Virus record (IMG/VR): IMGVR_UViG_3300015199_000001
Location: 1-42,453 of that record
From: a virus
Length of the DNA: 42,453 nt
Strand: one strand, 5' to 3'
The notes below the pieces were generated by a model. It was given only the letters and a program-made list of their open reading frames with translations. It was not told the origin of the DNA and ran no database searches. The stretch's first letter is position 1. Each line of letters opens with the position of its first letter. This document shows, piece after piece, positions 2,149 to 35,391 of the stretch. Made by a program: the position numbers and the translations under genes.

Positions 2149-2522
2149 TGCTGCCAGGGATAGGCGGCCTCACGGGACTGATTGATGGTGGCCTGGATAC
2201 CCAAACGGTTACGGTTGGCAAGGGCCTTACGCCAACCCGCTGGGGTTATGATGGCGGCGTCCCTTACGGCTCAATCGTCGATGGCACCTCCAACATTTAC
2301 GCGGGCGGCGCGATCAACTGGCTCTACTGGAATGCCAGCGTCTCAACCCTGAACCTCGACATCACCGGCGCAACCAATAGCGGCTGGGTGACGGTGACAG
2401 TTGGGGGCGTGGACTTCGCGCGGTCGGCGGCAACGTTCGCCGGAACCACGTGGACATGGGCAGGCGCCGCCAACCCGTTCGGCACCACCATCGGCGCTAG
2501 TGTCGTGGCGACGTTCTCGTGA
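2145..2522 (+). CDS. Hypothetical fibre-associated protein (125 aa)
   Basis: GTGA/ATG coupled to the fibre gene. Gly/Thr-rich. Confidence 0.45.
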   Translation: MMLPGIGGLTGLIDGGLDTQTVTVGKGLTPTRWGYDGGVPYGSIVDGTSNIYAGGAINWLYWNASVSTLNLDITGATNSGWVTVTVGGVDFARSAATFAGTTWTWAGAANPFGTTIGASVVATFS

Positions 2523-2794
2523 CCCCCGACATCGACATTCGTGTCCAGCTAGAGCGCATGGAGGGCACGATCAACCTCACCAATCAGAAGATGGATACGG
2601 TGGCGGCCAACGTCAGCGACCTCAAACGCGAAGTGTCGCAGCATGGGGACCGCATCGGCAAGCTGGAGGCAACCGGCAACATCGCGCTTGGTGAACGCCG
2701 GGGCATCGGCCTTGCGGCCAAGATCATGTATGCCGCTGGCGGTGGTGGCCTCATCGGCGCGGCGGTGTTCGTCGCGCGGGCGTTCGGCGTATGA
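2519..2794 (+). CDS. Coiled-coil protein with C-terminal transmembrane helix (XhlA-like architecture)
   Basis: GTGA coupling. N-terminal heptad-like region, then the hydrophobic tail GLAAKIMYAAGGGGLIGAAVFVA. Confidence 0.4.
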   Translation: MTPDIDIRVQLERMEGTINLTNQKMDTVAANVSDLKREVSQHGDRIGKLEATGNIALGERRGIGLAAKIMYAAGGGGLIGAAVFVARAFGV

Positions 2795-3024
2795 CCGATA
2801 GCCAGAAACAGGCGCTGGCCCTCGCGGTCGGGGTCGATCTCATCAACCATTGGGACGCGATAGCCAAAGAGCCGCTGCCCGATGATTTCACCGAACTACT
2901 CGCACTACTGTCCGAAACGACCAAGGGAGCAGACTTTGCCCAAGGGAACGAACGACAATCCGCGCATTCTAATTTTGGACATAGAGACGAAGCTGATCCC
3001 AGTTCTGACGTTCGGGATTCGTGA
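2791..3024 (+). CDS. NepR-like anti-sigma factor candidate (77 aa)
   Basis: ATGA-coupled start. The core VGVDLINHWDAIAKEPLPDDFTELLALL matches the remembered NepR signature IGxxLRxxY-x5-EP(I/L/V)PDxFxxLLxxL. The 3' ~90 nt overlap the next gene. Confidence 0.5.
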   Translation: MTDSQKQALALAVGVDLINHWDAIAKEPLPDDFTELLALLSETTKGADFAQGNERQSAHSNFGHRDEADPSSDVRDS

Positions 3025-3771: not shown

Positions 3772-3796
3772 AACGGACTAAGCCCGCCTTTGTTCC
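3772..3796 (-). promoter_or_regulatory. Perfect match to the general-stress sigma (EcfG) promoter consensus GGAAC-N16-CGTT
   Basis: The minus strand reads GGAACaaaggcgggcttagtcCGTT. It lies in the 125-bp gap between the exonuclease and endolysin genes. Confidence 0.3.
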
Positions 3797-3807
3797 GAGG
3801 GGGTTCC

Positions 3808-4323
3808 ATGCGCTCAAATTTTGACGCCTCGCTGGCCGCTGTCCTCAAGTCCGAGGGCGGCTATAGCAACGATCCGCAAGACCCCGGCGGCCGAACCAAT
3901 CGCGGCGTCACGCAAGCGGTCTATGACGCATGGCGGGTCGATCACGGGCTGGCGCTACAGTCGGTCAAGTTCATCACGCCTGCTGAAATCTGTGCTGTAT
4001 ATAAAAGGCGCTACTGGGACTCTGTGTCGGGCGACGCCATGCCATCGGGGCTGGATTATTGCCTATTCGACTTCGGCGTCAACAGCGGCCCCGGCAGGGC
4101 GGCTCGCTATCTGCAAGAGGCGCTGATGGTCAATGTCGACGGCAAGATCGGCCCGGCGACAATGGCGGCGGTTGCCGAGGGCGTGGTTCCGACACTGATC
4201 GACGACATTTGCGACTTGCGGCTCAAGTTCCTCCAGGGCCTGCCGACCTTTGGCCACTTCGGCAAGGGCTGGACGGCCCGCGTTGCCGATGTCCGCGCAC
4301 GAGCGAAGGGAATGGCGAAGTGA
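3808..4323 (+). CDS. Endolysin, glycoside hydrolase family 108 N-acetylmuramidase with C-terminal peptidoglycan-binding domain
   Basis: EGGYSNDPQDPGGRTNRGVTQ signature, plus DGKIGPATMAAV and GWTARV motifs. GAGGGGG Shine-Dalgarno before ATG 3808. Confidence 0.85.
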   Translation: MRSNFDASLAAVLKSEGGYSNDPQDPGGRTNRGVTQAVYDAWRVDHGLALQSVKFITPAEICAVYKRRYWDSVSGDAMPSGLDYCLFDFGVNSGPGRAARYLQEALMVNVDGKIGPATMAAVAEGVVPTLIDDICDLRLKFLQGLPTFGHFGKGWTARVADVRARAKGMAK

Positions 4324-5388: not shown

Positions 5389-5976
5389 ATGATCCGAAAT
5401 GCGCTGCTCGCCTTGGCGGGCCTGTCACTAGCCGTGCCTGCCGTTCCTCAAGATGCGTTCCCGTCGCCGTTCGAGCTTTCCTTCGCCACCGTCCCCCGCC
5501 TCGATTGCGGCGAAGCGCGCGGTTCCGGCGTCCGCCTATCCGATACTCTTGTCATCACCGCCGCGCACGTCATGTTCGATGAAAAGGATAACTCAACCCG
5601 CCAGTGCAAAGCCTTCGGTCAGCCGATGACAAACGTTGTCCGGCTTCCGGGCCTTGACGTTGCCACCGGCCAAGCCGCGATGGAGGACGGCTTTCGCGCC
5701 ATTGTCTCCTGCGACGGCATTCAGGAAGGCCGCGTTTATATGGCAATGGGCTATCCCGACGGGGACGCGCCCGACGTGCAAATGCTTATCGGCACTAACC
5801 GAAAGGCCGCGCCACACCAGGCCATTCTTAAGGGGCGGGTTTACCACGGCATGAGCGGCGGCGCCGTCATCGAACAATCGACCGGGCGGGTGGTGGCCAT
5901 CATCAATGCGCTGAACCCCGACTATCCGCTAACCTTCGTCACGCCGTTAAGCGAAACTTACTTGTGCAAATCCTAG
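5389..5976 (+). CDS. Secreted trypsin-like (S1 fold) serine protease
   Basis: Signal peptide MIRNALLALAGLSLAVPAVP. His motif VITAAHV and Ser motif GMSGGAV. Confidence 0.6.
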   Translation: MIRNALLALAGLSLAVPAVPQDAFPSPFELSFATVPRLDCGEARGSGVRLSDTLVITAAHVMFDEKDNSTRQCKAFGQPMTNVVRLPGLDVATGQAAMEDGFRAIVSCDGIQEGRVYMAMGYPDGDAPDVQMLIGTNRKAAPHQAILKGRVYHGMSGGAVIEQSTGRVVAIINALNPDYPLTFVTPLSETYLCKS

Positions 5977-6153: not shown

Positions 6154-6307
6154 CAGGGGCGCGGTCAAGCGGTAGGTTGGTTGCGGGCCGGGCTTGATAC
6201 CGGCGAGTTATTCCGACGTGTCAATTCGGCGTCTCGGCTTTGACCTGCCTAAGCGCACACTCAACTGCGCTGCCGCAACCATGGCTACGTCACGCGACCG
6301 AGAAACC

Positions 6308-6347
6308 CCAATCCAACGCCGCAACCAATGCTTGCGTTACCCGATTT
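6308..6347 (+). repeat. 40-bp perfect direct repeat, copy 2, ending 15 nt before the Rz start codon
   Basis: Identical to 6114..6153. Contains AAC-N17-CGTT. Confidence 0.95.
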
Positions 6348-6362
6348 TCGGAGTATAGTCAA

Positions 6363-6875
6363 ATGCCAATCTTGCTCGCCATTTGGGACTTTGCGAAGCG
6401 CCTGAACCTGTCGCAAATCGCGCTGGTCGGCGTTGTCGCGCTGGCCCTCATGTTTCGGGTCCAACTCGGCCTGGAGCGTCGCCACAGCGGGCATTTGACC
6501 GTGCGGGTCAACGAACTGACCGCTCTTCGCGCAACCGACCGGGCATCATACGTAAAGGCCCAAGCCGACGCGGCGGACAAGAACCGCGCCGAGGTCAAGG
6601 CAATCGAGCAACGCCAGGAGGCGATAACCAATGACGTGCAAGCCAATCTTACTGATCGCCTTGAGCGCCTTCGCCGCGAGCTGCGCCAAGGAACTGCCGC
6701 CCCTCAGGGTTCTACCAGTAGCGCCGGAGCATCCCCGAATGGCAAATCCGGGGCCGGAACTCCTCAGGCGACCGGGCTGTGTCTTGAGGCCGATCAGCTT
6801 TTGCGAGCCGCAGAAAACGAGGAACGGCACGACCGCCTGATAGATTGGGTCGAGCAACAGCTTAAGGCGCGCTAG
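6363..6875 (+). CDS. Rz: i-spanin (Rz-like)
   Basis: GGAG Shine-Dalgarno. N-terminal TM helix LSQIALVGVVALALMF, long charged coiled coil, and an embedded lipoprotein ORF in the +1 frame. Confidence 0.7.
   Translation: MPILLAIWDFAKRLNLSQIALVGVVALALMFRVQLGLERRHSGHLTVRVNELTALRATDRASYVKAQADAADKNRAEVKAIEQRQEAITNDVQANLTDRLERLRRELRQGTAAPQGSTSSAGASPNGKSGAGTPQATGLCLEADQLLRAAENEERHDRLIDWVEQQLKAR
6631..6840 (+). CDS. Rz1: o-spanin (Rz1-like lipoprotein) embedded in Rz
   Basis: Signal plus lipobox-like LSAFAAS|C. Short proline-rich mature part. Lies entirely inside 6363..6875 in another frame. Confidence 0.65.
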   Translation: MTCKPILLIALSAFAASCAKELPPLRVLPVAPEHPRMANPGPELLRRPGCVLRPISFCEPQKTRNGTTA

Positions 6876-8018: not shown

Positions 8019-9074
8019 TTAGACAATGCACCCGCTTTGTTCCCATTCCGCGACCTGATCTAGCGCCCCACCCGCAAGCCGTTTCCGATTCGCTGTATCG
8101 GCATAAACCGCCACTTCTCGGTCTCCCGTCCATTGGCCCAGCGCCTTGAGGCTTTGCTGCGACACATTCAGATCGGCGGCGCGCCTGGTAAGCGCCTTCC
8201 TCAGCCCGTGCGCGGTGCATTTGGGCAGCCCCGCCGTGAGGCACTGGGCCTTGAACCAGTTGCCGAACCCTGCGGCGGTGTAGGGCTTGCCGAAGCTGGT
8301 TTCTATCAGCGTGGCCGTGCCAACCTTATCCATTGCGGCGATTGCCGCCTGTAGGGCTGGCGCGACGTGCAGGTCGATTTCCTTGCCCGTCTTGACCGCT
8401 ATCGTGCGGAACCGGCCATCGACCGGCGGCGGCATGGTGTGGGCATTGCCCCGGCGCGATCCCGTCCACAGCATCAACTCCATCGCCAGCCTCGGCTTTG
8501 TACCCAGAGGCCAGCGGGCGCGGAACTGCGCGATGTCGCGTTCCGTCCAGGCGTAAAAGCCATCCCCCCTATGATCGACTTTCGTCGACTTAATGACCGG
8601 GTTGTCGCCACGCATCTCCTCGACGACCGCGAACTCAAACAGCCGCAGCAGCACCTCGCGCAGCCGTTCTGCCGATGCCGTCCCGCCGTGAACCCGCTTC
8701 CCCACTTGCCGCTTCACCATCCGGTCGGCGATTAGGCGGTTGATGTCCTTGGGCCGAAAGTTCACCACCGCGTCGTCGCCAAGCTCGCTCCTAACGGTTT
8801 CGATGTATTGCCGCATGGTCGCCTGCCAACTTGGCCCGGCCTTCCTGAACTCGGTCGATTGATAGAACTTGCTCACCAGCTCGTTGAACGTGCCGGGGCG
8901 AGCGCGGACTATGCGAACGCCGTTAAGCGCCTCGTTGTAGCGGTCGCGGTAGGCTTGCGAACCCGGCGGCGGCAGATACAGCGACACGCCGTCCCTACGG
9001 AACCGGAACCGCTCCTTGCCGTGGCGATCCACGAACACCGACACATAGCGGTCTAGCTTGCGCTTACGCGGCAT
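8019..9074 (-). CDS. int: Tyrosine integrase
   Basis: C-terminal catalytic motifs: R in TGSRRGN, AHGLRK, and Y in VAVYAD. N-terminus MPRKRKLDRYVSVF. An upstream ATG at 9113 is possible. Confidence 0.85.
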   Translation of the reverse strand: MPRKRKLDRYVSVFVDRHGKERFRFRRDGVSLYLPPPGSQAYRDRYNEALNGVRIVRARPGTFNELVSKFYQSTEFRKAGPSWQATMRQYIETVRSELGDDAVVNFRPKDINRLIADRMVKRQVGKRVHGGTASAERLREVLLRLFEFAVVEEMRGDNPVIKSTKVDHRGDGFYAWTERDIAQFRARWPLGTKPRLAMELMLWTGSRRGNAHTMPPPVDGRFRTIAVKTGKEIDLHVAPALQAAIAAMDKVGTATLIETSFGKPYTAAGFGNWFKAQCLTAGLPKCTAHGLRKALTRRAADLNVSQQSLKALGQWTGDREVAVYADTANRKRLAGGALDQVAEWEQSGCIV

Positions 9075-9243
9075 GAAGCCTGTCCAGCGGGTTGCGACGG
9101 GCGCCGCCCTCATCGCGCTCCCCGATCACCACCTCAATGCCGTTATCGTTGATAACTATCCGCGCCACCCGCAATCCCGCCGCTTCCGCAGCCTTGACGG
9201 CGCGGGTTAGGTCGGCCTGGCGAAAGGCGGCGCGGGCCGTCAC
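9064..9243 (-). CDS. Small ORF (59 aa, GTG start) in the excisionase position
   Basis: Translates to VTARAAFRQADLTRAVKAAEAAGLRVARIVINDNGIEVVIGE... Its stop overlaps the int start. Below the cutoff of the supplied ORF track. Confidence 0.45.
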   Translation of the reverse strand: MTARAAFRQADLTRAVKAAEAAGLRVARIVINDNGIEVVIGERDEGGARRNPLDRLHAA

Positions 9244-22215: not shown

Positions 22216-22424
22216 GCGCCTGGAATCATCGCGTGGTGCGCTCAATCGAGGACGGGGAGGAATGGCTTGGCATTCACGAGGCGTTCTACGACATCGACGG
22301 CGGAACCGTGTGGACGGAAAGCCCGGTTGGCGTCATCGGCGAAAGCATTGACGAGCTGCGCGAGACGCTGGAGCGGATGCTGGCGAGCCTCGACAAATCG
22401 GTGTTGGGGGAACCATCGAAATAA
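22212..22424 (+). CDS. Hypothetical acidic protein (70 aa)
   Basis: ATGA-coupled. Confidence 0.4.
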   Translation: MSAWNHRVVRSIEDGEEWLGIHEAFYDIDGGTVWTESPVGVIGESIDELRETLERMLASLDKSVLGEPSK

Positions 22425-22450
22425 TTATGCGTTCAACTGCCGTTCCCCTA

Positions 22451-22668: not shown

Positions 22669-22938
22669 GTGAGCGAATACGCCCGCAAGCGCCGTGTTTA
22701 CCGAAAGGCGACAAGCAATGCCTTGGCCCGTGCCATGCCCGACCTCGACGTAGCGGCGGCTGAGCGGATTATCCACGCCATTGCGATTTGCGCCGCGTCC
22801 ATGGCGTGGAAGGGCGAGCCGGGGAACGTCGAGGGGATAATGAACCTCGCCGATGAGTTCGCGGATTACATCAGCGGTGTGTCCGGTGCCAAGATTCCGC
22901 GCCCCGACATTACCGAAGCCAAGAAAGCGGCGCGATGA
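22669..22938 (+). CDS. Hypothetical protein (89 aa), first late-arm gene
   Basis: GTG start with AGGAG Shine-Dalgarno. Confidence 0.45.
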   Translation: MSEYARKRRVYRKATSNALARAMPDLDVAAAERIIHAIAICAASMAWKGEPGNVEGIMNLADEFADYISGVSGAKIPRPDITEAKKAAR

Positions 22939-23433: not shown

Positions 23434-24819
23434 ATGAGGGGATTGCGCTTGGGCCTCGGCCTGTCGAGGACTGGCGGCATCGCCGACCCCTCGGCTGGCT
23501 ACGCCCTGTACCTCGACTTCAAGAACCAGCTTTATCGTTCGGGATCGACGCTCATCTCGTCGGCAGTGGCGCTTGGGCCTGAGATTTGCGGCGACCCCGG
23601 TTTTAATGGGGGCGGATGGTGGATTTTAGACGCCGGGGTTACTATCAGTGGCGGCAAGGGTGTCTGGACGGCGACGACGGGAAATGCTTACCATAACGCG
23701 GTTCTCAATATAGGCTCGTCCTATACGGCAACTTACACAGTTGACAGTGTTACAGGCGGAACGATTGGCATCGTGCCGGGCGGGGTGCAGCGCGCCGCTC
23801 CCGGCACCTATACCGAAACCTTCGTCGCGACGCAGACCTATTTTGCCATGGGCGCTGGCGGCACTACCGCGACGGCGCAGATTGACAACGTATCGGTCAA
23901 AGCCGTCGGCATCGCCGCCCTCCCCGGTTACAGCTACACCCGCACTGGCGCAAAGCAGGAATTGCTCGCCAGCGGTGCGGTATCGTCCAGCTTCGCCGCT
24001 AATGTCCCCGGCATTACGACAGCGGGTTATTACTCGCGGGGGGCGGTGACGAACTTGCTCTTAAATGCGGGGCAATCGACGAGCCTTTCCACCCAAAATG
24101 TCACGGTCACCGCACAAGCCTACACGCTCTATTTCATGGACACGGGCACCGTCACGCTGTCGGGCGTCTCGGTTGCTGGCCCGTTGGTCGGCACCGGGGT
24201 TAATAATCAAGTCAGCCTGACCTTCACGCCGACCGCCGGCACACTAACGCTCACCGTGACGGGCAACGTCGCCTATTCCAACCTGGTCGCGGGTTCTGCT
24301 GTCGGCCCGATCATCGCCACGGCGGGCGCGACGGTGGCGGTTGGGGCTGATGCACTAGCTGTTAGTCCTCCCGCGTTGGCCGATCAGGACATGCTCATTT
24401 GGGTGGACTGGACGCCCAAGGAAACGGTAGCCTCCGGGTTCGTCAGCCAATACGACAACGGCACCAACGACGCCGACAGCTTTATCTTCTTTGCAAACGG
24501 CGGAACCCGCGTGTGGGTGGCCAGTGGGCTGCAGCACAATGATGCGGGCGCAGCCGAAGTTGTAGGCGTAAGACACACCCGCATCTTACGTCGCCTGTCA
24601 GGCAACTGGCGGTCGGGTAAGATTGTCGCCGGGGTTTTGACATGGGCCGCAGCCGGTGGCGCGGGAACATTCCCGACCGCAGTAACGACACTCCGTCCGG
24701 GCAAAGACACGCTCACCGTCAGCAATGTCGGGCAGGCTCATGCCGGGGACTTCATCAAGGTAGGCACCTTCACCACTGATGCAGCCGTTCTTGCGGCTGT
24801 GGCGGGGACGGGGATTTAA
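23434..24819 (+). CDS. Tail fibre / receptor-binding protein with lectin-like domains
   Basis: N-terminal GLRLGLGLS. CBM-like segment GDPGFNGGGWWILDAGVTISGG...IDNVSVKAV. SYTRTGAKQ...NVPGIT, typical of fibre LamG-like domains. Confidence 0.5.
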   Translation: MRGLRLGLGLSRTGGIADPSAGYALYLDFKNQLYRSGSTLISSAVALGPEICGDPGFNGGGWWILDAGVTISGGKGVWTATTGNAYHNAVLNIGSSYTATYTVDSVTGGTIGIVPGGVQRAAPGTYTETFVATQTYFAMGAGGTTATAQIDNVSVKAVGIAALPGYSYTRTGAKQELLASGAVSSSFAANVPGITTAGYYSRGAVTNLLLNAGQSTSLSTQNVTVTAQAYTLYFMDTGTVTLSGVSVAGPLVGTGVNNQVSLTFTPTAGTLTLTVTGNVAYSNLVAGSAVGPIIATAGATVAVGADALAVSPPALADQDMLIWVDWTPKETVASGFVSQYDNGTNDADSFIFFANGGTRVWVASGLQHNDAGAAEVVGVRHTRILRRLSGNWRSGKIVAGVLTWAAAGGAGTFPTAVTTLRPGKDTLTVSNVGQAHAGDFIKVGTFTTDAAVLAAVAGTGI

Positions 24820-24821
24820 CC

Positions 24822-25436
24822 ATGCCCGCCTTCAACCGAAGCCTCTTGAAGCCGCTGGACACCCAGCCTTGGCGCTACACCGCCTTCCTCCTGCTCGCAG
24901 CCTGTGGCGCTGGCGGCTCAAGTCCCACCCCCCAGCCTTCCGCACAATGGGAGATCGGCCCGACCGGGATCGACAGCGCCCTATGCCCCAGCGGCAATTG
25001 CTCCATCGGCGAGCCTTTATACACAAACGGCAGCATCACCATTAGCCCGACGCAACAGCCGCACTATGTCACGAGGCCGGGAACGACGCCCCCGACGCAT
25101 CTCAGGTTCACCGTCACCGGCCCGCTGATCGGCGCGCACTGCTCATCGAATAGCATGGTCAGCCTGTACTTCGCCACGAAGGACAATGACTGGTCAAGCG
25201 ACGGACAGCGCTGGTGGTCCGGGGCCACGACAATCGACCATGCGGGTGAGTATGACATAACTCCCGTGGCATGGACCTCGGTCAAGACAATGACTTCGCA
25301 GAACAGCCCGCTCGAATATGCCCGCGCCCGTGCCAATGCTGGCCGCGTCGGCCTCACGTTCGGCAACTGCATCGGGCTTGGTCACGGCGCGACGGCTGAC
25401 GGGTCGGTGGTGTTTACGATTAACGAGTTTGAATAG
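24822..25436 (+). CDS. Predicted lipoprotein (204 aa)
   Basis: Lipobox LLLAA|C after a basic N-region, followed by a Ser/Pro/Thr linker. Confidence 0.5.
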   Translation: MPAFNRSLLKPLDTQPWRYTAFLLLAACGAGGSSPTPQPSAQWEIGPTGIDSALCPSGNCSIGEPLYTNGSITISPTQQPHYVTRPGTTPPTHLRFTVTGPLIGAHCSSNSMVSLYFATKDNDWSSDGQRWWSGATTIDHAGEYDITPVAWTSVKTMTSQNSPLEYARARANAGRVGLTFGNCIGLGHGATADGSVVFTINEFE

Positions 25437-25445
25437 GGGGCGCGA

Positions 25446-26879
25446 TTGGCTGATAACCTCCCGATCACCCCCGGATCTGGCGCCACGGTCGCAACCGACG
25501 ACGTTGGCGGTATTCATTACCAGCTTGTAAAGCAGGCGTGGGGCGACCTTAACGTCGCCAATCTTGTCTCGGCTGCCAACCCGTTGCCCGTAAGCGCGAC
25601 GATAACCGGGGTGGCGACGGAAACGACCCTTGCCGGACTAACCGCCAAGTTCGGCGCGCTCGGCCAAGCGACAATGGCGGCCTCTGCGCCGGTCACGATT
25701 GCGTCCAATCAAGGCGCCCTTGCCGTAACCGGGGCGTTTTATCAGGCGACGCAGCCAGTCAGCGGCACGGTAACGGTCGGAAATGCCAGCGTCGCTGTCA
25801 CGGGCAGCTTTTACCAGGCGACACAGCCCGTTTCCATCGCATCGATGCCCTCAACGCCAGTGACCGGGACATTCTTTCAGGCAACGCAGCCGGTAAGCAT
25901 TGCCGCGACGGTTGCCATAAGCGCGGCGAGCCTTCCGCTCCCATCGGGTGCGGCCACGGCAGCCAAGCAGCCCGCACTGGGAACGGCTGGCGCGGCCTCG
26001 ACTGACGTTATCACGGTTCAGGGCATAGCCAGCGGAACAGCGCAGCCGGTCACTGGCACGTTCTGGCAAGCGACCCAGCCTGTTTCCGGCACGATCACCG
26101 CGAATGCGGGAACCGGGACAATGGCGGTCAGTTTGGCGACGCTCCCGGCCTTGACAACGGGCGCGGCGGTCATCGGCGCGGTCACGCAAAGCGGAACGTG
26201 GAACATCGGCACGGTCACGACGCTCCCCGCGTTGCCCGCCAACCAATCGGTCAACAATGCTCAGGTCGCTGGGGTAACGACTGCAACCGGCAGCGGGGTT
26301 GTCGGCACTGGCGTCCAGCGTGTCGTTCTCGCCACCGACGTTGCCTTACCCGCTGGCACGAACACATTAGGCACAACCACTGGCCCAACGCTCACCAAGG
26401 CGACGCAGGGCACGACCGGCTATTCGGTTCAGGACTTGAAAGACGCGGGGCGGGTCAGTTTCGCAGCGGCTACCGTGATCGCTGGAGTCGCGGCGGTTGC
26501 AGTTGAAGCCCTGTTGTCGGTGGTCCCGGTAAGGGACGGCACGGCAGCGGCGGGCGCAACGTCAATCACCGTTACCAGCGGCAAGCGCCTTAGGGTGCAA
26601 GCAATCGTCGCTAGCGCCCGCTCCAGCGCCGCCACGGTGCTTTCGGGCCGCGTGGTGCTACGGATGAACCCAAGCGGCGCCGTGACGGCCACAAGCCCGA
26701 TCATTGCCATCCTAAGCATGACGCAACAAGCAGCGGCATTGGCCGAGGCTGGGGATACCTGCGTTGTTTCGCTGCCCGATGGCTTCGAGATAAGCGGGAC
26801 GCAGCAGATCGGCCTTAGCCAAGTCTGCTCGGGAACCGGCGGCGTCATTTATGCGTCGATTGTCGGCTTTGAATACTAA
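25446..26879 (+). CDS. Repeat-containing fibre/spike-like structural protein (477 aa)
   Basis: TTG start with AGGGGG Shine-Dalgarno. Four copies of TG(A/S/T)F(Y/F/W)QATQPVS. Ala/Thr/Gly-rich. Confidence 0.5.
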   Translation: MADNLPITPGSGATVATDDVGGIHYQLVKQAWGDLNVANLVSAANPLPVSATITGVATETTLAGLTAKFGALGQATMAASAPVTIASNQGALAVTGAFYQATQPVSGTVTVGNASVAVTGSFYQATQPVSIASMPSTPVTGTFFQATQPVSIAATVAISAASLPLPSGAATAAKQPALGTAGAASTDVITVQGIASGTAQPVTGTFWQATQPVSGTITANAGTGTMAVSLATLPALTTGAAVIGAVTQSGTWNIGTVTTLPALPANQSVNNAQVAGVTTATGSGVVGTGVQRVVLATDVALPAGTNTLGTTTGPTLTKATQGTTGYSVQDLKDAGRVSFAAATVIAGVAAVAVEALLSVVPVRDGTAAAGATSITVTSGKRLRVQAIVASARSSAATVLSGRVVLRMNPSGAVTATSPIIAILSMTQQAAALAEAGDTCVVSLPDGFEISGTQQIGLSQVCSGTGGVIYASIVGFEY

Positions 26880-28151: not shown

Positions 28152-28372
28152 GAAGGTCGCACCAAGAGGATGTGCGCGCTAAAATCCAAACCAGTCAGTT
28201 GATAAATCGCCTTACAGATCACGCACTTGGCGTCGTCGAGCTTTCGGCAACACAAGTAAGGGCGATAGAGATACTGATTAAGAAAACACTGCCCGATCTT
28301 CAAACGGTCGAACTGACCGGCGAGGGCGGTGGGTCGATTGGCCTCGCGATCTTCAAGGGTCTCAATGACTAA
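28136..28372 (+). CDS. terS: Terminase small subunit
   Basis: IQTSQLINRLTDHALGVVELSATQVRAIEILIKKTLPDL resembles small-terminase N-termini of podovirus-type phages (from memory). Directly precedes terL. Confidence 0.55.
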   Translation: MAARLRRSHQEDVRAKIQTSQLINRLTDHALGVVELSATQVRAIEILIKKTLPDLQTVELTGEGGGSIGLAIFKGLND

Positions 28373-29627
28373 GACGGTTGACCTGGTTTCGCCCTATGAG
28401 GTGCGCGACCAGTTCATGCCGCTTCATGCTCGCAAGACGCGGTGGTTCATCGGCGTTGCCCATCGCCGGGCGGGCAAGACGGTTGCCGACATCAATGAGT
28501 TGGTAATCGGCGCCACCAAGTGTCGCCTGCCCAACCCGCGCTTTGCCTACGTCGCGCCGCAGTTGAACCAAGCCAAGGACATCGCCTGGGTCTATCTGAA
28601 GGAATACACCGCGTTCCTTTCGCCCAAGATCAACGAGAGTGAATTATGGGTCGAACTGCCGGGCGGGGCAAGAATCAGGATTTATGGCGCCGACAATGTG
28701 GATCGCCTTCGCGGCATCTACCTTGATGGCGTGGTGCTTGATGAGTTCGGCGACATGGACCCGACGATCTGGTCGCAGGTCATTCGCCCGGCATTGAGCG
28801 ACCGCAAGGGTTGGGCCGCGTTCATCGGGACGCCCAAGGGCAAGAACACGTTTCACCGGCTATGGATTGAGGCTGACGGCGACAAGGACTGGACCCGGCT
28901 GATGCTCAAGGCATCGGAGACGGGCCTGCTGGACGCCAACGAATTGGCCGACGCCCGCCGCATGATGAGCGTGGACGAGTTCGCCCAGGAGTATGAGTGT
29001 AGTTTCGAGGCGGCGGTCAAGGGTGCTTACTACGGCAAGGAAATGAACGATGCGGACGATGCGGGCCGCATATGCAGCGTTCCTTACGATCCTCGCTTTC
29101 CTGTGCATACGGCTTGGGACTTGGGCATGGCGGACTCGACTGCGATCTGGTTCATTCAGGTCGCGGGGCGCGAAACCCGCGTCATCGACTGCCTCAAGGG
29201 CGAGGGCGTCGGTCTCGACTGGTATGTTAAGCGCCTACATGAGCGCGACTATGTGTGGGGCAGCCACTATCTCCCACATGATGTCGAAGTCCGCGAGCTT
29301 GGCACCGGGAAGTCCCGCAAGGAAGTTCTAGAGGGGCTGGGCATCAAGGTCACGGTGTGTCCGAACATTCCCAAGGCCGATGGTATTCAAGCGGTTCGGA
29401 TGCTGATTCCGACCTGCTGGTTCGACAAGACCAAGACGAGGCTCGGCGTTGAGGCGCTGCGGATGTTCCGCCGCGACTATGACGAGAAGCGCCAGGAGTT
29501 TCGCACCACCGAGTTCCGCGACTGGACGACGCACTACGCCGACGCCTTCCGCTATTTCGCGGTCGGGCATCGTGACCGCGCGCCGGTTCGTAAGATCGAT
29601 TATTCCAAGGGGATGCGGGTCGTATGA
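28365..29627 (+). CDS. terL: Terminase large subunit
   Basis: Walker A-like AHRRAGKT, Walker B VVLDEFG and a nuclease-half-sized C-terminus. The ATGA-coupled start at 28365 is preferred to 28329. Confidence 0.85.
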   Translation: MTKTVDLVSPYEVRDQFMPLHARKTRWFIGVAHRRAGKTVADINELVIGATKCRLPNPRFAYVAPQLNQAKDIAWVYLKEYTAFLSPKINESELWVELPGGARIRIYGADNVDRLRGIYLDGVVLDEFGDMDPTIWSQVIRPALSDRKGWAAFIGTPKGKNTFHRLWIEADGDKDWTRLMLKASETGLLDANELADARRMMSVDEFAQEYECSFEAAVKGAYYGKEMNDADDAGRICSVPYDPRFPVHTAWDLGMADSTAIWFIQVAGRETRVIDCLKGEGVGLDWYVKRLHERDYVWGSHYLPHDVEVRELGTGKSRKEVLEGLGIKVTVCPNIPKADGIQAVRMLIPTCWFDKTKTRLGVEALRMFRRDYDEKRQEFRTTEFRDWTTHYADAFRYFAVGHRDRAPVRKIDYSKGMRVV

Positions 29628-29821
29628 ACTGGCCCGCGTTTGAAGCGCGCTTTCCGGGCGCCACCGCAGCAACATTTCGCCACTGGCCGCACGGCACCAA
29701 GCCCTTCGCAAAGGGCGACAAGTTTGGGCCGGTCATGTGGCGCGTCAAATACGATGGGAGGACTGTGGAAATGCAGGACAGCCCCGGCGTGTTGGCCGAC
29801 ATCGCAAAGGCCTTCGCATGA
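29624..29821 (+). CDS. Hypothetical protein (65 aa) between terL and portal
   Basis: ATGA-coupled on both sides. Confidence 0.45.
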   Translation: MNWPAFEARFPGATAATFRHWPHGTKPFAKGDKFGPVMWRVKYDGRTVEMQDSPGVLADIAKAFA

Positions 29822-31854
29822 TAGATGTGAATCCTGATCTTCTAGCCTTTTTGAAGGAAGAAGAAATCCGTTCGCGCAACCAAGACTTGCTCGACCGTGC
29901 CGAGGTGGCGCTCAACAGTTACAACGGCGACCTGTATGGCGACGAGGAAGATGGCCGTTCCAAGGTCGTCACCCGCGACGTTGCCGAGGTCATCGACCAC
30001 ATGGAGGTCAGTGTCCTTCGCGTGTTCGTGTCGGGCGACCGCGTGGTTGAGTTCGAGCCGCTTGACGAAAGTCAGTCAGACGCCGCCGACGACGCGACCG
30101 AGGCTATCCACCGCCAGTTCCAGCGCAAGGGCTACCAGCTTCTCCACGACTGGTTCAAGGAAGGCAATATCTCGACGCTGGGCATCGTCAAGACAGCCGC
30201 CGAGCAAAGGCGCGAACGGGTCGAGAGTGTCATGCCGTCGATGCTTATGCCCGATGACGCGCTTGAAGCGTCCCCGGTCGAAGGCGACGAAAGCGGGCTG
30301 GACCTTCACCACGTCGCGACCATGCAAGACAAGCCGGTCGAGTTCCGCGATTATCTCGTGCCGATTGAAGAGTTCCGCATTTCGCGGGACGCTCGCGACA
30401 TCGACGATGCCGTTTACGTTGCCCACGCCTCGGTCAAGACGCTTGGCGACCTTGTGGCAATGGGGTTTGACACCGAAGACGTAACAACCATTCCATCTTA
30501 TCATCACATTGAAAGCCTTTCGACCGCCCGCGACACGGGGCTGGACTTTTCCGCCGACCGCAAGGGCGCCAATCGCAAGGTCATCCTCTATGAGGAATAT
30601 GTCCGGTTCGACGCTGACGACGACGGCATTGCCGAGCGGCTGTGCGTTCACCGCGTTGGCGACACGATCCTACGCATCGAGCCGACCGACTATCAGCCGT
30701 TCGTCATCTATTGCCCGTTCCCCATGCCGGGGCGTATCGCCGGTCATTCGCTGGCCGAGAAAGTCACCGACATTCAGCGCGTCCGCACGGTGTTGCAGCG
30801 GCTTCACCTTGACGGCCTCTATACCAACCTTGCGCCGGGTTATCTGGTGCATGAGGATTCGGCGACCGAAAACACTTACGACGACCTGCTGACCGTCCGT
30901 CCCAACCGCATCGTGCGCTGGAAGGGCAGCGTGGCGCCAATGCCGGAGAGTAAGAACGACGTGTCCGCCGTGGCGATGGCCGCGATGGAGCAATTGATCG
31001 GCGAGCGCGAGTCCAGGACGGGCGTCACCCGCATGAACCAGGGGCTGGACGCCGACGCGCTCAACAAGACGGCCACAGGAACGGCGCTGATGCAAGCGCA
31101 GGGCCAGCAGATGGAAGAGTATTTGGCGCGCAACTTCGCCGAGGCCCTTGCTCGGCTGATGCGCCTCAAGCTCAAACTGATGAGCCGCTACGGCAAGCCG
31201 ATGAAGATGCGCGTCGACGGCACGTTCCGCGAGGTCGATCCCTCGCAATGGCCCGAAGAAATGGACGTTATCACCCGCGTCGGGCTTGGGTCGGGCAAGA
31301 AAGAGCAACGCCTGATCTATCGGATGCAAGTGCTGCAAATCCAGCGCGAGTGCATGATGGCGGGCTTGCCGATTGTCGGCCCTGAACAGATTTATAAGTC
31401 GATCTCCGGGGTGGTGAAGGATTCGAGCCTTGGCAGCCCGGCTGATTTCGTGATCGACCCGTCAAGCCCAGAGTTCCAGCAGGCGCAGGCCAATCGCCCG
31501 CCGCCTCCGCCCGATCCGCATCAGATGAAGGTGCAAGGCGAAATGCAGTTGCAGCAAGCCAAGATTGAGGGCGAGCAACAGATCGCGCAAGCTAGGTTGC
31601 AGCATGACGCGGCGGCGGCGGAGCAGGCGCAGCAGTTCGCCCAAACCAAGGCGGAAAGCGATGCCCAGCTTGCCCGCGACAAGGCCAATGCCGAGTTGCA
31701 GCTTGCCGAGCAGAAGTTCGCGGTCGAGGCGCGCATTGCCGAGCACAAGATGATGATGGCCGAGATGCACCACGAGCGCGACCAATCGCGACTCGACGCG
31801 GCCAATGATGCCAAGATCAGCAAGGATCGCAGCGGCGGGGCGCTCGACAAGTGA
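29818..31854 (+). CDS. Portal protein with long C-terminal coiled coil
   Basis: 678 aa, directly after the terminase. The C-terminal 120 aa are Q/A/E-rich heptads, as in P22-type portal barrels. Confidence 0.75.
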   Translation: MIDVNPDLLAFLKEEEIRSRNQDLLDRAEVALNSYNGDLYGDEEDGRSKVVTRDVAEVIDHMEVSVLRVFVSGDRVVEFEPLDESQSDAADDATEAIHRQFQRKGYQLLHDWFKEGNISTLGIVKTAAEQRRERVESVMPSMLMPDDALEASPVEGDESGLDLHHVATMQDKPVEFRDYLVPIEEFRISRDARDIDDAVYVAHASVKTLGDLVAMGFDTEDVTTIPSYHHIESLSTARDTGLDFSADRKGANRKVILYEEYVRFDADDDGIAERLCVHRVGDTILRIEPTDYQPFVIYCPFPMPGRIAGHSLAEKVTDIQRVRTVLQRLHLDGLYTNLAPGYLVHEDSATENTYDDLLTVRPNRIVRWKGSVAPMPESKNDVSAVAMAAMEQLIGERESRTGVTRMNQGLDADALNKTATGTALMQAQGQQMEEYLARNFAEALARLMRLKLKLMSRYGKPMKMRVDGTFREVDPSQWPEEMDVITRVGLGSGKKEQRLIYRMQVLQIQRECMMAGLPIVGPEQIYKSISGVVKDSSLGSPADFVIDPSSPEFQQAQANRPPPPPDPHQMKVQGEMQLQQAKIEGEQQIAQARLQHDAAAAEQAQQFAQTKAESDAQLARDKANAELQLAEQKFAVEARIAEHKMMMAEMHHERDQSRLDAANDAKISKDRSGGALDK

Positions 31855-32024
31855 CTGGCTGGCATCGCTTCCAGCCCGTGAAATTGGGCGACGATTGGCT
31901 GGCGTCGGCGGAGTTCTTTCGCGACGACAGGCCCGTGCCAGAGGATGATAGGGCAGGCACCATCCGGAAAGCCCGCGCTCCGACCGAACACGCCGCCGCC
32001 GAACTTCTGGAGCGGCTGCTGTGA
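31851..32024 (+). CDS. Hypothetical protein (57 aa, GTG start)
   Basis: GTGA overlap with the portal stop. Fills the gap. Confidence 0.4.
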   Translation: MTGWHRFQPVKLGDDWLASAEFFRDDRPVPEDDRAGTIRKARAPTEHAAAELLERLL

Positions 32025-32158
32025 TAACCTGGAGCGCCAAGACCGTCCGCATAACCGCCAACATCATCATTCCAGAGGGTGACGTTTACACCGCTGACGG
32101 GCGGACATTCTATCGCGCAGAGGCGAATAACGAAATGCGGGAAGGGGTGCGCGATTGA
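32021..32158 (+). CDS. Hypothetical protein (45 aa, GTG start)
   Basis: GTGA / TTGA coupled on both sides. Confidence 0.35.
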   Translation: MITWSAKTVRITANIIIPEGDVYTADGRTFYRAEANNEMREGVRD

Positions 32159-32475
32159 CCGACTATGAAGCCGCAGCACGGGGTCAGCGCGCCAAGCAGG
32201 CCGCCGAGTTCGTCGGCCCGATCCTCGCCTCGCACCGCAGCGAATATCTCGACAAGATCGCCCTGATTGCCACGACCGAACTTGATGCCAAGAAACGCGC
32301 CGACGCGATCACCTCGCTATCGGTGGCCATGAAGATACTCGGCAACATCGAAAGCGCCCTGACCGCTGCCATTCAGGACGGCGATATGGCCGAGAAAAGC
32401 ATCATCCGCGCCGACAATGTAGCGAAGATGAGCGACCATAAGCGCCGCCTCTTCGAGTTCGCGCCACAACGATAA
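32155..32475 (+). CDS. Hypothetical head-module protein (106 aa)
   Basis: Helical composition. Lies between portal and scaffold. Confidence 0.45.
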   Translation: MTDYEAAARGQRAKQAAEFVGPILASHRSEYLDKIALIATTELDAKKRADAITSLSVAMKILGNIESALTAAIQDGDMAEKSIIRADNVAKMSDHKRRLFEFAPQR

Positions 32476-32561
32476 GAGCGGAACGTAACCCGCCACACCA
32501 TCGACCGGGACACCCGGCGATCATCCCAACGAGGATGCACTAAAGACCTGAAGGACACTCA

Positions 32562-33581
32562 ATGACGACCCAGCCAGAACAGGCAGTCGGCAACGAGGCC
32601 ACCGCGCCCGCAGCCGCCGCCAGCAATCCATTCGAGGACATCGCTGCCGAAATGCTCGGCGAGGAGCAGGAAGAAGAACCCGCCCCGCAAACAGAGGGCG
32701 ACGAACCGGAAACCGAACAGGCGGAAGCCGACGCGGACGACCTGGACGACGAGGACGAGGCCGAAGCGGGATTGCCGCCCATCGAGCCGCCACACTCGTT
32801 AAACGCCGAGGACAAGGAAGCCTTCAAAAAGCTCCCGCGCGAGGCGCAGGAGTTCACCGCTCGCCGCATTGGCGAGATGGAGAAGGGTTTCAACACCAAG
32901 GCGCAAGAGGCGGCACAGGCCAAGGAAGCCGCCCGAACCGAAGCATTGCAGTTTGCCACCCAGCTAAAGGCCGAAGCGGCCCAACGGTTGAGTGAGTATG
33001 CCAAGATGTTCGAGGTTCGACCACCCGACGCGGCGCTATTTCGCACCAACCCGGATGCCTACGCCCAGCAACTTGAGGCCTATCAGTATGCCACCGTCCA
33101 GCGCGAACAGGCGCAACGGGAAGCTGAACAGGCCAGAGGCGAGCAGGCCCAATATCAAACGGCACTCCAGCAGCACGAAGCGCAACAGTTTCGTCAGCGG
33201 CTAGAGGCCGAGCTGCCCGAAGCATTCGGGGAAGGCGGACAGAAGTTCATCGGTGAACTTGCTGCCACCGCCGAAGCCCTCGGATACGACGACAACGCGA
33301 TCACCCAATCCTCGGTTGAAGAACTGAAGGCGCTCAAAGCCGTAAGCGAGTGGAAGGCCAAGGCCGACCGCTTCGACAAGGCGATGGCGAAGAAGATGGA
33401 GCGCGTTCGTTCAGGCAAGAATCCCCCACCGATCTCGAAGCCGGGCGTTAGCCGGGGCGCGAGTGCCAGCCGACAGGCCAAGGTGGAGCAATCGTGGCAA
33501 AACGCACTGACCGCCAAAACGCGCAACGCGCGTGAGTCGGCGTTAGCCGAATGGGCCGAAGGCGCGGGCTACCTCGACTAG
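32562..33581 (+). CDS. Scaffolding protein
   Basis: Very acidic N-terminus, long Q/A/E/K coiled-coil composition. Immediately upstream of the capsid gene. Confidence 0.6.
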   Translation: MTTQPEQAVGNEATAPAAAASNPFEDIAAEMLGEEQEEEPAPQTEGDEPETEQAEADADDLDDEDEAEAGLPPIEPPHSLNAEDKEAFKKLPREAQEFTARRIGEMEKGFNTKAQEAAQAKEAARTEALQFATQLKAEAAQRLSEYAKMFEVRPPDAALFRTNPDAYAQQLEAYQYATVQREQAQREAEQARGEQAQYQTALQQHEAQQFRQRLEAELPEAFGEGGQKFIGELAATAEALGYDDNAITQSSVEELKALKAVSEWKAKADRFDKAMAKKMERVRSGKNPPPISKPGVSRGASASRQAKVEQSWQNALTAKTRNARESALAEWAEGAGYLD

Positions 33582-33655
33582 GCCAACCACAATCGGATTC
33601 CACGCTGTGAAGCGTCGCGTCCCAGCGCCCCTCCGGGGGCCAGAAGGAACCTTTA

Positions 33656-34606
33656 ATGACTGTGCTTGCAAATACCATTCAGAACGTCGCGCGTGTCGGC
33701 GTTCGTGAAGACCTCTCGGGCAAGATCGCGGAACTATTCCCCGACGATTGCCCGTTCATCGACGGCATTGGTCGCTCAACCGCGAGCAATACCTATACCG
33801 AGTGGCAGACGGACGTTCTTGCGGCCGCTTCGGCCACCAACTCGTCCATTCAGGGTGACGATCTCGCCAACTTGAGCCGTGCGAACACCACGCGCGTCGG
33901 CAACTATACGCAGATCTTGACCAAGGTTGTGGGCGCGTCAACCACCGTTGAGTGGACGAACAAGGCCGGGCGCAAGTCTGAACTTGCTCGCGAACTGATG
34001 AAGGCTGGCCGTGAACTCCGCACCGACATGGAGAAGCGTTTCGTTGGCAACTATGCCTCGGTCGCTCCTGCCGCCGGTGTTGCCGGTCTGTCGGGTGGCG
34101 CGCTTGCGTGGCTAACCACCAACACCTCGAAGGGTGCTGGTGGCGCGGACGGCGGCTTCTCGGCTGCGGTCGTTGCGGCTGCCACCAACGGCACCCAGCG
34201 CACCTACACGGAAAGCCTGCTCAAGACCGTCCTTCAAACGGTGTGGGTTGCCGGTGGCAATCCGAAGATGGTCATCACCAACGGTGCCCAGAAGCAGGCG
34301 GAGGCCGCGTTCGTCGGCCTTGCCGATCAGCGTCAGGAAGCCGGTGGCAAGTCCATGACCATCGTGGCGGCTGCGGACTACTACCTCAGCGACTTCGGCA
34401 AGATCGCCTTTGTTGCCGACCGCTTCGCCTCGGCCCGAGACGCCCTGATTGTCGATCCTGAATACTTCGACATCGCGGTCGGTGAGGAAATGACCACGTT
34501 TGACCTGGCCCAGACCGGCCTCGCCAAGCGCAAGGCCATCCGGACCGAAGTCACCCTGCGTTGCTTGAACGAAGCTGCGTCGGGCGCAATCCGCGACCTC
34601 CTGTAG
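33656..34606 (+). CDS. Major capsid protein (SU10/DUF5309-like HK97-fold type)
   Basis: N-terminal REDLSGKIAELFPDDCPFIDGIG...YTEWQTD pattern and the position after the scaffold gene. Followed by a terminator. Confidence 0.75.
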   Translation: MTVLANTIQNVARVGVREDLSGKIAELFPDDCPFIDGIGRSTASNTYTEWQTDVLAAASATNSSIQGDDLANLSRANTTRVGNYTQILTKVVGASTTVEWTNKAGRKSELARELMKAGRELRTDMEKRFVGNYASVAPAAGVAGLSGGALAWLTTNTSKGAGGADGGFSAAVVAAATNGTQRTYTESLLKTVLQTVWVAGGNPKMVITNGAQKQAEAAFVGLADQRQEAGGKSMTIVAAADYYLSDFGKIAFVADRFASARDALIVDPEYFDIAVGEEMTTFDLAQTGLAKRKAIRTEVTLRCLNEAASGAIRDLL

Positions 34607-34618
34607 GCTGAATGAGGG

Positions 34619-34652
34619 AGGGGCTGGTTCTTAGGGACTGGCCCCTTCTTTT
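34619..34652 (+). terminator. Hairpin AGGGGC...GCCCCT followed by TCTTTT
   Basis: 6-bp GC stem and a T-rich tail 13 nt after the capsid stop. Confidence 0.45.
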
Positions 34653-34670
34653 CCATGAAAGGATAGGCCC

Positions 34671-35006
34671 ATGAGGCTCAAGGTTTCTGCCGCTGGCGCC
34701 GTTACTCAGGCGACCAGCAAATCCACTGCGGTGACGCTTGCCGCACGTTGCGGCACGATCACCATGAATAACGCATCGCTGGCTGGCGCAACGAACGTCG
34801 GCTTTACCGTCACCAACCCGTCCGTTTCGCTTGGCGACGTAGTTGTTGTCAACATCGCCTCGGGCGCGACCGCCGATAGCTACCACGCTACGGTTGACGC
34901 GGTGGCGGCGGGTTCGTTCCGTATCTCGTTGCGTAACGTCACTGCCGCGACGCCTCTCTCCGAGGCGGTGGTGCTGAACTTCAGCGTCATTAATAACTTC
35001 GGCTAA
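34671..35006 (+). CDS. Putative capsid decoration / small structural protein (111 aa)
   Basis: Beta-rich composition. Bracketed by two terminator-like hairpins next to the capsid gene. Confidence 0.4.
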   Translation: MRLKVSAAGAVTQATSKSTAVTLAARCGTITMNNASLAGATNVGFTVTNPSVSLGDVVVVNIASGATADSYHATVDAVAAGSFRISLRNVTAATPLSEAVVLNFSVINNFG

Positions 35007-35011
35007 TCAGG

Positions 35012-35039
35012 CGGGCGGGGGTCATTCCTCGCCCGTTTT
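35012..35039 (+). terminator. Hairpin CGGGCG-N12-CGCCCG followed by TTTT
   Basis: Read directly. Confidence 0.5.
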
Positions 35040-35052
35040 GACTGGAGGCAGA

Positions 35053-35382
35053 ATGTCCCAGTGGGAAATGCTCGACAACGGTTCGTTCAACGGCGTCGCC
35101 AAGTATATTCGCGGGCTGGAAGACGGCTCGGTCGATGTGAAGCACGTCTTCCACGACATTAGCCCGATCATCGACGCCAACAAGCGCAGCCAAGTCGAAA
35201 CCATGAATACCAAGATGGGCGACGGCATCCAACACGCCGCCCGCATCCCGATGGAAGTAGTTTACGAGTGGATCAGGGACCACGGCGTCAATCTATACAA
35301 TCCGAACCATCGCCAAGGCGTTGAGCGCCTGTTGAACTCATCAGAGTATCGCTGGTGCAAGGTTCGCGACATCATTATCTAG
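35053..35382 (+). CDS. Hypothetical protein (109 aa)
   Basis: ATG with GGAGG Shine-Dalgarno, preferred to TTG 35038, which lies inside the terminator. Confidence 0.45.
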   Translation: MSQWEMLDNGSFNGVAKYIRGLEDGSVDVKHVFHDISPIIDANKRSQVETMNTKMGDGIQHAARIPMEVVYEWIRDHGVNLYNPNHRQGVERLLNSSEYRWCKVRDIII

Positions 35383-35391
35383 GAGCAGCCC

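Follow-up and report, generated by a model that had tools for sequence, protein, structure and literature searches.

In the Alphaproteobacteria, among them plant symbionts, Brucella, Caulobacter and the sphingomonads, the master regulator of stress is the PhyR-NepR-EcfG partner switch. Its anti-sigma factor, NepR, is described as a conserved core with free flanks; in the Caulobacter protein a first flank, FR1 (residues 1-32), is followed by helix α1 (33-47), a linker (48-51), helix α2 (52-61) and a second flank, FR2 (62-68) (PMC4551977). The core alone suffices to bind σT and PhyR's sigma-like domain (PhyR-SL), a poly-alanine linker abolishes all binding, and FR1 is needed both for binding full-length phosphorylated PhyR and for anti-sigma activity in vivo (PMC4551977). 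Here we describe ORF77, a 77-residue NepR-like open reading frame (ORF) in the virus record IMGVR_UViG_3300015199_000001. This complete metagenomic contig of 42,453 bp, analysed over its whole length and called the window below, is the genome of a temperate tailed phage.

Relationship to NepR

The reading frame and its product are as follows.

2791..3024, plus strand: ORF77, a 77-residue NepR-like protein with an ATG start, stop codon included in the span, reading MTDSQKQALALAVGVDLINHWDAIAKEPLPDDFTELLALLSETTKGADFAQGNERQSAHSNFGHRDEADPSSDVRDS (ORF list and sequence)

The initial annotation had called this frame a NepR-like anti-sigma factor encoded by a phage; the protein string that it quoted is present exactly at these positions. 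NepR (PF18557) is the only Pfam match of ORF77 (E = 1.9e-4, 21.5 bits, residues 22-41; 22.9 bits when the protein is trimmed to 46 residues), NepR (NF051865) is its only match in NCBIfam, and it is the sole ORF of the 78 in the window to match NepR. Among 177,635 distinct PDB sequences the only match with an E value up to 10 is Caulobacter NepR, chain 3T0Y_B, whose residues 31-60 align with ORF77 without a gap. BLASTP against P0129, a bona fide chromosomal NepR (51.8 bits) encoded between phyR and ecfG, gives 38% identity over 37 residues, again gapless, with E = 1e-7; the canonical locus is seen in L096. The core alignment to NepR put forward in the initial annotation therefore holds against both proteins.

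Profile comparisons were made in both directions. When a hidden Markov model (HMM) was trained on one bona fide NepR and seven phage NepR-like proteins, excluding ORF77, it gave ORF77 a score of 21.3 bits (E = 1.2e-5). No other of the 1,156 six-frame segments exceeded 4.3 bits, and 30 windows shuffled by triplet yielded at most 9.4 bits. Conversely, a profile of six phage proteins retrieved P0129 from 5.8 billion proteins, and hhalign of this profile with P0129 gives a probability of 95.9% and E = 6e-9. The resemblance of ORF77 to NepR is more than chance. Searches of IMG/VR and GenBank phages with ORF77, by tblastn or by pattern, returned nothing, and tblastn found no NepR-like gene among 50,697 GenBank phage records.

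Predicted structure and key residues

An AlphaFold2 model of ORF77, built with a nine-sequence alignment, has two helices separated by a loop of residues 26-30 (KEPLP). The elements of the core are these.

2797..2865, plus strand: predicted helix α1, residues 3-25 (AlphaFold2)
2869..2880, plus strand: EPLP linker, Glu27-Pro28-Leu29-Pro30, counterpart of Glu48-Pro51 in Caulobacter NepR (alignment)
2881..2928, plus strand: predicted helix α2, residues 31-46, reading DDFTELLALLSETTKG (AlphaFold2)

Block means of the AlphaFold2 per-residue confidence (pLDDT) are 78-88 over the first 40 residues and 54-62 in the C-terminal tail, which has no secondary structure. All of the conserved core positions are kept in ORF77, namely Leu17, Trp21, Glu27, Pro30, Asp31, Phe33, Leu36, Leu37 and Leu40. 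The contact positions of NepR are among them, with Leu17 and Trp21 in α1 and Phe33, Leu36, Leu37 and Leu40 for the hydrophobic face of α2; Glu27 and Pro30 are invariant across the phage family and bona fide NepR, and Leu36 and Leu40 are likewise invariant. From the alignment, Leu17 and Trp21 appear to be the counterparts of Leu32 and Tyr36 in Sphingomonas melonis NepR, and the Arg that follows the α1 Leu is replaced by Ile. In S. melonis, Leu32 and Tyr36 of NepR, and Leu31 and Phe35 of NepR2, matter in vivo, and the R33A substitution is without effect (PMC6599016).

Gene boundaries and coding signature

ORF77 is tightly packed between two other genes on the same strand.

2519..2794, plus strand: upstream 91-residue protein with a coiled-coil N-terminus and a hydrophobic C-terminal segment
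2936..3682, plus strand: DnaQ/PolB-type 3'-5' exonuclease with a C-terminal zinc ribbon (Pfam RNase_H_2; phrog_403, E = 4.5e-59)
2936..3024, plus strand: C-terminal tail of ORF77, which reads into the exonuclease gene (third-position GC, pLDDT, relatives)

The ATG of ORF77 (2791-2793) overlaps the TGA (2792-2794) of the upstream gene in an ATGA, the coupling that the initial annotation had also read. The longest ORF of the exonuclease starts at ATG 2882. The 120 homologues listed, mostly of 240-248 residues, cover about 91% of this ORF and begin just before the DIET motif; we therefore place the start at the nearest in-frame start codon, TTG 2936, six bases after a strong Shine-Dalgarno sequence, AAGGGAG (2923-2929). 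On the evidence of these homologues, ATG 2882 is almost certainly wrong as the start. A close relative, L006, begins its exonuclease (MNDNPR...) at an ATG for which the window has ACG, and TTG 2936 lies four codons upstream of this codon. With this start the first 48 codons of ORF77 are free of the exonuclease gene, close to the 45 or so proposed earlier, and the overlap is 89 nt (2936-3024). That ORF77 might be the N-terminus of the exonuclease, through a fusion or a frameshift, was rejected, the 120 homologues being stand-alone proteins of 240-248 residues that start before the DIET motif.

Codons 1-41 of ORF77 have GC contents of 0.71, 0.34 and 0.71 at the first, second and third positions (GC1, GC2 and GC3), a coding-like pattern that is the same as in the genes of the window. 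The last 30 codons are not coding-like, with a GC3 of 0.33 in the ORF77 frame compared with 0.67 in the exonuclease frame. The TGA stop of ORF77 is formed by conserved Arg-Asp codons of the exonuclease, and the small ORF of L005 ends at the same ...VRDS and stop, whereas the homologues in L006, L012, L014 and L017 stop ahead of the exonuclease gene. We conclude, from the GC3 pattern, the exonuclease-made stop and the earlier stops of other relatives, that the tail is read-through, and it is probably an unselected, disordered extension.

The frame is not called in the source annotation, and its exact protein is absent from a collection of 15 billion proteins in which the other proteins of the contig are present. 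It has no strong Shine-Dalgarno sequence of its own, and a scan not tuned to alphaproteobacteria found no dedicated sigma-70-type promoter or terminator around it. The PADLOC defence models matched neither ORF77 nor its immediate neighbours.

Related proteins in other phages

Related contigs were collected with the exonuclease as anchor, and the slot upstream of the exonuclease gene was read in each. The following carry a NepR-like protein; Pfam scores are against NepR, and the cut-off is the curated one.

L012 (exonuclease 86% identical): slot protein MKKDGIADKVSRELHRLFDPVLKEKVPEDLKRLVAQLK, Pfam 23.7 bits
L014: slot protein ...IRALQHLYIDTLNEELPPDIKALLAKL..., Pfam 26.1 bits, above the cut-off
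L017: slot protein similar to that of L014, Pfam 26.6 bits, above the cut-off
L092, L094 and L095: MTREQFLKQLRREYAGVLTERIPDDMQALIERL..., 21.4 bits, flanked by a small membrane protein and an Amidase_2 endolysin
L006 and L097: ...ALRNLKQEYDRDVAKLQEEDPDWVKELLARL, no Pfam match, 16-17 bits against our HMM

Scans of IMG/VR with degenerate DNA patterns, in which most matches were due to chance, added four more loci.

L101: siphovirus with a tape-measure protein and a J-type tail fibre; 45-residue protein, Pfam 38.7 bits, E = 7.8e-10, above the cut-off
L128 and L144: ...KAALKELMRSWDDALSEPVPADMKALLAKLK, about 20.5 bits, in L128 ahead of a GH24 endolysin
L099, 6736-6942: 68 residues, a hydrophobic N-terminal segment fused to ...EPLPDDFAALLARLE, 20.2 bits

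NepR-like genes are thus not confined to one phage architecture: they occur in two at least, that of an SU10-like podovirus and that of a siphovirus whose tail fibre is of the lambda J type, and in both they stand at the head of the lysis genes. In L101 the small gene begins at a GTG that shares bases with the TAG of a membrane-protein gene, and is followed directly by a GH108 endolysin. In L099 the small gene is TAATG-coupled to a membrane-protein gene and is followed by a Tlde1/YkuD enzyme and spanin-like genes; its product may be a membrane-anchored NepR-like variant. L099 is a 101-kb provirus from an isolate genome.

Substitutions are distributed unevenly along these proteins. Between L014 and L017 the core differs by 12 synonymous codons and three conservative replacements, compared with two synonymous and eight non-synonymous changes in the flanks, and L006 and L097 show the same division between core and flank. 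This codon pattern indicates that the core of the phage NepR-like proteins is under purifying selection and that the flanks drift.

Not every relative has an intact copy. In L005 and L004, whose exonucleases are 86% identical to that of the window, only an α2-like piece is left, and in L010 only an α1-like piece; DNA identity collapses upstream of the exonuclease start. The degenerate small genes lie in the same slot (L005, 734-922; L004, around 450-638; L010, 2844-3071). A copy lacking helix α1 reads MKQHIKGLLALAFREPEDSETFAALLKQL..., and the copies without α1 and without α2 run to the same ...RDS and stop inside the exonuclease gene. The degenerate copies suggest ongoing gene decay or rapid turnover in this slot; the small gene is accessory and turns over quickly.

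Other genes are found at the same junction. Acyl_transf_3, GT87 glycosyltransferase and PAP2 phosphatase genes, which are envelope-modification genes, lie on the opposite strand between the tail fibres and the lysis genes (L091, 1566-2525; L097, 1885-2955; L128, 5290-6432; L094, 8353-9318). In L097, L128 and L094 the opposite-strand gene immediately precedes the NepR-like gene, which is missing from L091. The junction between tail fibre and lysis genes looks like a hotspot for accessory genes.

Proposed function

For the proposal that we favour, we see about an even chance. On sequence grounds, ORF77 would be a translated, minimal NepR, made late in infection, that binds the EcfG-type sigma factor of the host and keeps the stress response off. 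The protein would be reduced to the NepR binding core of helix α1, EPLP linker and helix α2, and its gene, placed before the lysis genes, would be translated jointly with the upstream gene for the small membrane protein. Like cellular NepR, it would wrap around the σ2 and σ4 surfaces of the host extracytoplasmic function (ECF) sigma factor. Phosphorylated PhyR should displace it poorly, because it has almost no N-terminal flank, so that the host's general stress response could not be turned on until the phage cycle was complete. We infer translation, timing, partner, direction of the effect and host alike. A conserved host target fits better than a phage partner, because the core stays constant beside unrelated membrane proteins and four different types of endolysin. 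A sigma factor encoded by the phage itself was considered as the target and rejected: neither a sigma-factor domain nor a receiver domain was found in the 78 ORFs of the window.

Several observations weigh against this proposal. The profile search that had been suggested as a check singles out NepR in both Pfam and NCBIfam, but the score of 21.5 bits lies below the Pfam gathering threshold of 25.7 bits. Searches with the single sequence gave no true relative, either in 5.8 billion word-indexed proteins or by phmmer in 1.84 billion, as expected since a motif of 30 residues and about 35% identity must fall short of significance in databases of that size; the sole phmmer match, P0001, is a junk tandem-repeat protein with LPDDLTSLL nine times, and was discarded as spurious. 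ORF77 has about 10 residues before the aligned core, compared with the 32 of FR1 in Caulobacter NepR, and the flank ahead of α1 is 5-15 residues in all phage members. Foldseek found no structural match to the model in the PDB, as one would expect of a hairpin of 45 residues. In the relatives whose exonucleases are nearest by identity the small gene is degenerate, which makes it dispensable or accessory. Two cellular NepR paralogues, NepR2 of S. melonis and META2p0735 of Methylobacterium extorquens, interact with PhyR and not with EcfG (PMC6599016, PMC4814048), so the partner of ORF77 could be PhyR instead. The constant place in lysis cassettes could point to a role in lysis, and the host of the window phage is deduced indirectly, from a related prophage. 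The anti-sigma reading of the initial annotation is thus borne out at the level of sequence; the sub-threshold score and the near absence of FR1 limit it, as does the lysis-cassette setting, which had escaped it.

The partner is the point on which the nearest alternative turns. As a decoy for PhyR, ORF77 would bind the sigma-like domain of the phosphorylated protein and so leave host NepR on σEcfG, with the response again blocked, an explanation to which we give an appreciable minority chance. NepR paralogues are known that repress the stress response and have PhyR, but not EcfG, as their partner (PMC6599016, PMC4814048), the flanks of NepR are not needed for its core to bind PhyR-SL (PMC4551977), and ORF77 keeps both the PhyR-SL-contacting linker and Leu17 and Trp21, whose counterparts are needed in NepR and NepR2. 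The short stretch ahead of α1 in the phage proteins argues against a decoy, and the sequence itself holds nothing that would tell PhyR from σEcfG as partner. If position is given more weight, ORF77 could be a component of the lysis cassette, an antiholin-like regulator or a partner of the membrane protein, with a likeness to NepR that arose by exaptation or convergence; we consider this improbable. A small membrane protein does precede the gene in every lineage found, with overlapping codons (ATGA in the window, TAGTG in L101, TAATG in L099), and a peptidoglycan hydrolase follows (Amidase_2 in L092 and L094, GH108 in L101, GH24 in L128, Tlde1/YkuD in L099), with the exonuclease gene between small gene and endolysin in the window group; in L099 the motif is even fused to a hydrophobic N-terminal segment. 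Yet the membrane proteins come from unrelated families beside a conserved core, whereas a holin-specific partner should co-vary; three members pass the curated NepR threshold and the phage profile retrieves a genuine NepR; and Acyl_transf_3, GT87 and PAP2 genes occupy the same junction, so position alone is no proof.

Both themes would meet if the NepR-like protein were a working part of the lysis module that links the PhyR/EcfG partner switch to lysis at the membrane, for which we see a slim chance. Here its tether to the membrane would be the co-translated holin-like protein or, in the manner of L099, a hydrophobic segment of its own; either the NepR-like protein would sequester σEcfG or phosphorylated PhyR there just before lysis, or phosphorylated PhyR, signalling host stress, would pull it off the holin and reset the lysis clock. 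ORF77 might, finally, be non-functional, either a remnant in decay or a frame that is not translated, lying in the 141 nt that separate the membrane-protein gene from the exonuclease gene. It is uncalled and scores below the Pfam cut-off, its own stop codon is lost so that 89 nt are read into the next gene, the versions in the nearest relatives are degenerate, and neither a strong Shine-Dalgarno sequence nor a promoter of its own was seen. Against this stand the codon-position GC pattern of codons 1-41, which is that of the window's genes, the ATGA overlap, which permits translational coupling, and the purifying selection on the family elsewhere. Because the motif is intact at every conserved core position and the coding signature is present, we regard a non-functional remnant as possible but quite unlikely.

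Phage genome, neighbouring genes and host

The description of ORF77 as phage-borne is confirmed by the packaging and head genes and the integrase of the window. The principal features are listed here.

28329-29627: large terminase (packaging and head genes)
29737-31854: SU10-type portal (Pfam SU10_portal, E = 6e-157)
32562-33581: scaffold (head gene)
33656-34606: SU10-type major capsid protein (Pfam SU10_MCP, E = 5e-81)
within the structural module 28329-37405: SU10_adaptor (Pfam)
8019-9113, minus strand: integrase
3790..4323, plus strand: GH108 endolysin with a peptidoglycan-binding domain (Pfam Glyco_hydro_108, E = 2.9e-27; PG_binding_3)
6240-6875, with 6631-6840 embedded: spanin-like pair (sequence features only)

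Helix-turn-helix regulators and the integrase accompany the SU10-type structural module (28329-37405). SU10 itself is a lytic coliphage. The window looks like the genome of a temperate phage with an SU10-like head, one that probably infects a sphingomonad.

ORF77 is assigned to the lysis cassette because the GH108 endolysin gene marks this cassette downstream. We read the 91-residue upstream protein, from its hydrophobic C-terminal segment, as a putative holin-like membrane protein; it matches only PHROG families of unknown function. In L005, L010, L014 and L017 a homologue of it stands before the small gene and the exonuclease gene; L016 and L018, both without the small gene, have one upstream of the exonuclease gene. 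Inside the lysis region the window also encodes a trypsin-like serine protease with an N-terminal signal-like segment (5389-5976), found at the same place in L003, L004, L092, L094 and L128, whose matches to PADLOC defence models, of the RT-protease and trypsin-like kinds, are weak (E = 6e-8).

Three consecutive large ORFs of 461, 204 and 477 residues (23434-26879) lie just upstream of the terminase region. They have no PHROG match at the thresholds used, and the first (23434-24819) has no tblastn match in the 50,697 phage records; the Pfam scan of the 78 ORFs reports domains without naming the ORF that matched, and none of the three could be tied to a Pfam family. Domains of the early region include an N6/N4 DNA methylase, a GNAT acetyltransferase, NinB, a VRR-NUC nuclease, GIY-YIG and a DnaT-like domain. 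The EcfG-type promoter consensus GGAAC-N16/17-CGTT has two exact matches in the window compared with 0.75 expected, which is not significant, and control of phage genes by such promoters was rejected. One match, at 22409-22433 on the plus strand, has an AT-rich spacer and lies ahead of the ORF 22669-22938; the other is at 3772-3796 on the minus strand.

The window contains neither host DNA nor a tRNA gene. A related prophage, L094, whose exonuclease is 69% identical to that of the window and which has a NepR-like gene of its own, adjoins a che operon whose proteins cluster at at least 90% identity with proteins named for Sphingomicrobium sp. and Sphingomonas telluris. Since this prophage abuts a Sphingomonadaceae che operon, a sphingomonad is the likely host of the window phage. 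GTDB genomes gave only distant exonuclease matches and no host, a plasmid search gave no close relative, and the phage relatives of the portal protein, at 32% identity or less, come from mixed hosts.

Comparison with known systems

Full-text searches found no paper on a NepR of a phage or prophage, or on a virus carrying part of the PhyR-NepR-EcfG system. The NepR family itself is known; new here are its occurrence in a phage, its loss of FR1 and its position within a lysis cassette. ORF77 shares with cellular NepR (PF18557; C. crescentus, 3T0Y) a core of about 30 residues in which an α1 with a Leu-x3-aromatic pattern, an E-P-x-P linker and an α2 with D-x-F-x2-LL-x2-L follow one another in the same secondary structure, predicted in the case of ORF77, and the phage family repeats the cellular pattern of conserved core and drifting flanks. 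It differs in being encoded by a phage, in a late, lysis block and not beside ecfG or phyR, in a flank of about 10 rather than about 32 residues, in a tail that is read-through and in a score below the curated cut-off. By score, FR1 and locus context ORF77 thus falls outside the definition of NepR; by helix-linker-helix arrangement and contact residues it falls within it. If phage NepRs do bind σEcfG or PhyR, they would be natural core-only NepRs, useful for dissecting the roles of the disordered flanks, and could provide compact genetic tools to turn off the general stress response.

NepR2 of S. melonis and META2p0735 of M. extorquens resemble ORF77 as divergent, additional NepR-like proteins outside the core nepR position. 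Both keep the PhyR-contacting residues and lower the output of the stress response (PMC6599016, PMC4814048), and NepR2 has Phe at the α1 aromatic position (PMC6599016). They are cellular feedback regulators driven by EcfG-type promoters, for which no EcfG binding has been seen, whereas ORF77 is phage-borne and has no significant EcfG-type promoter nearby.

Phage anti-sigma factors of the T4 AsiA type are small proteins that bind a host sigma factor and redirect transcription. To our knowledge, those described, such as T4 AsiA, act on the housekeeping sigma-70 and have their own folds, whereas ORF77 would copy the host's own anti-sigma factor and aim it at an ECF stress sigma factor. Binding of phage NepRs to σEcfG or PhyR would make them a natural case of a phage copying a host anti-sigma factor and thereby silencing an ECF stress regulon.

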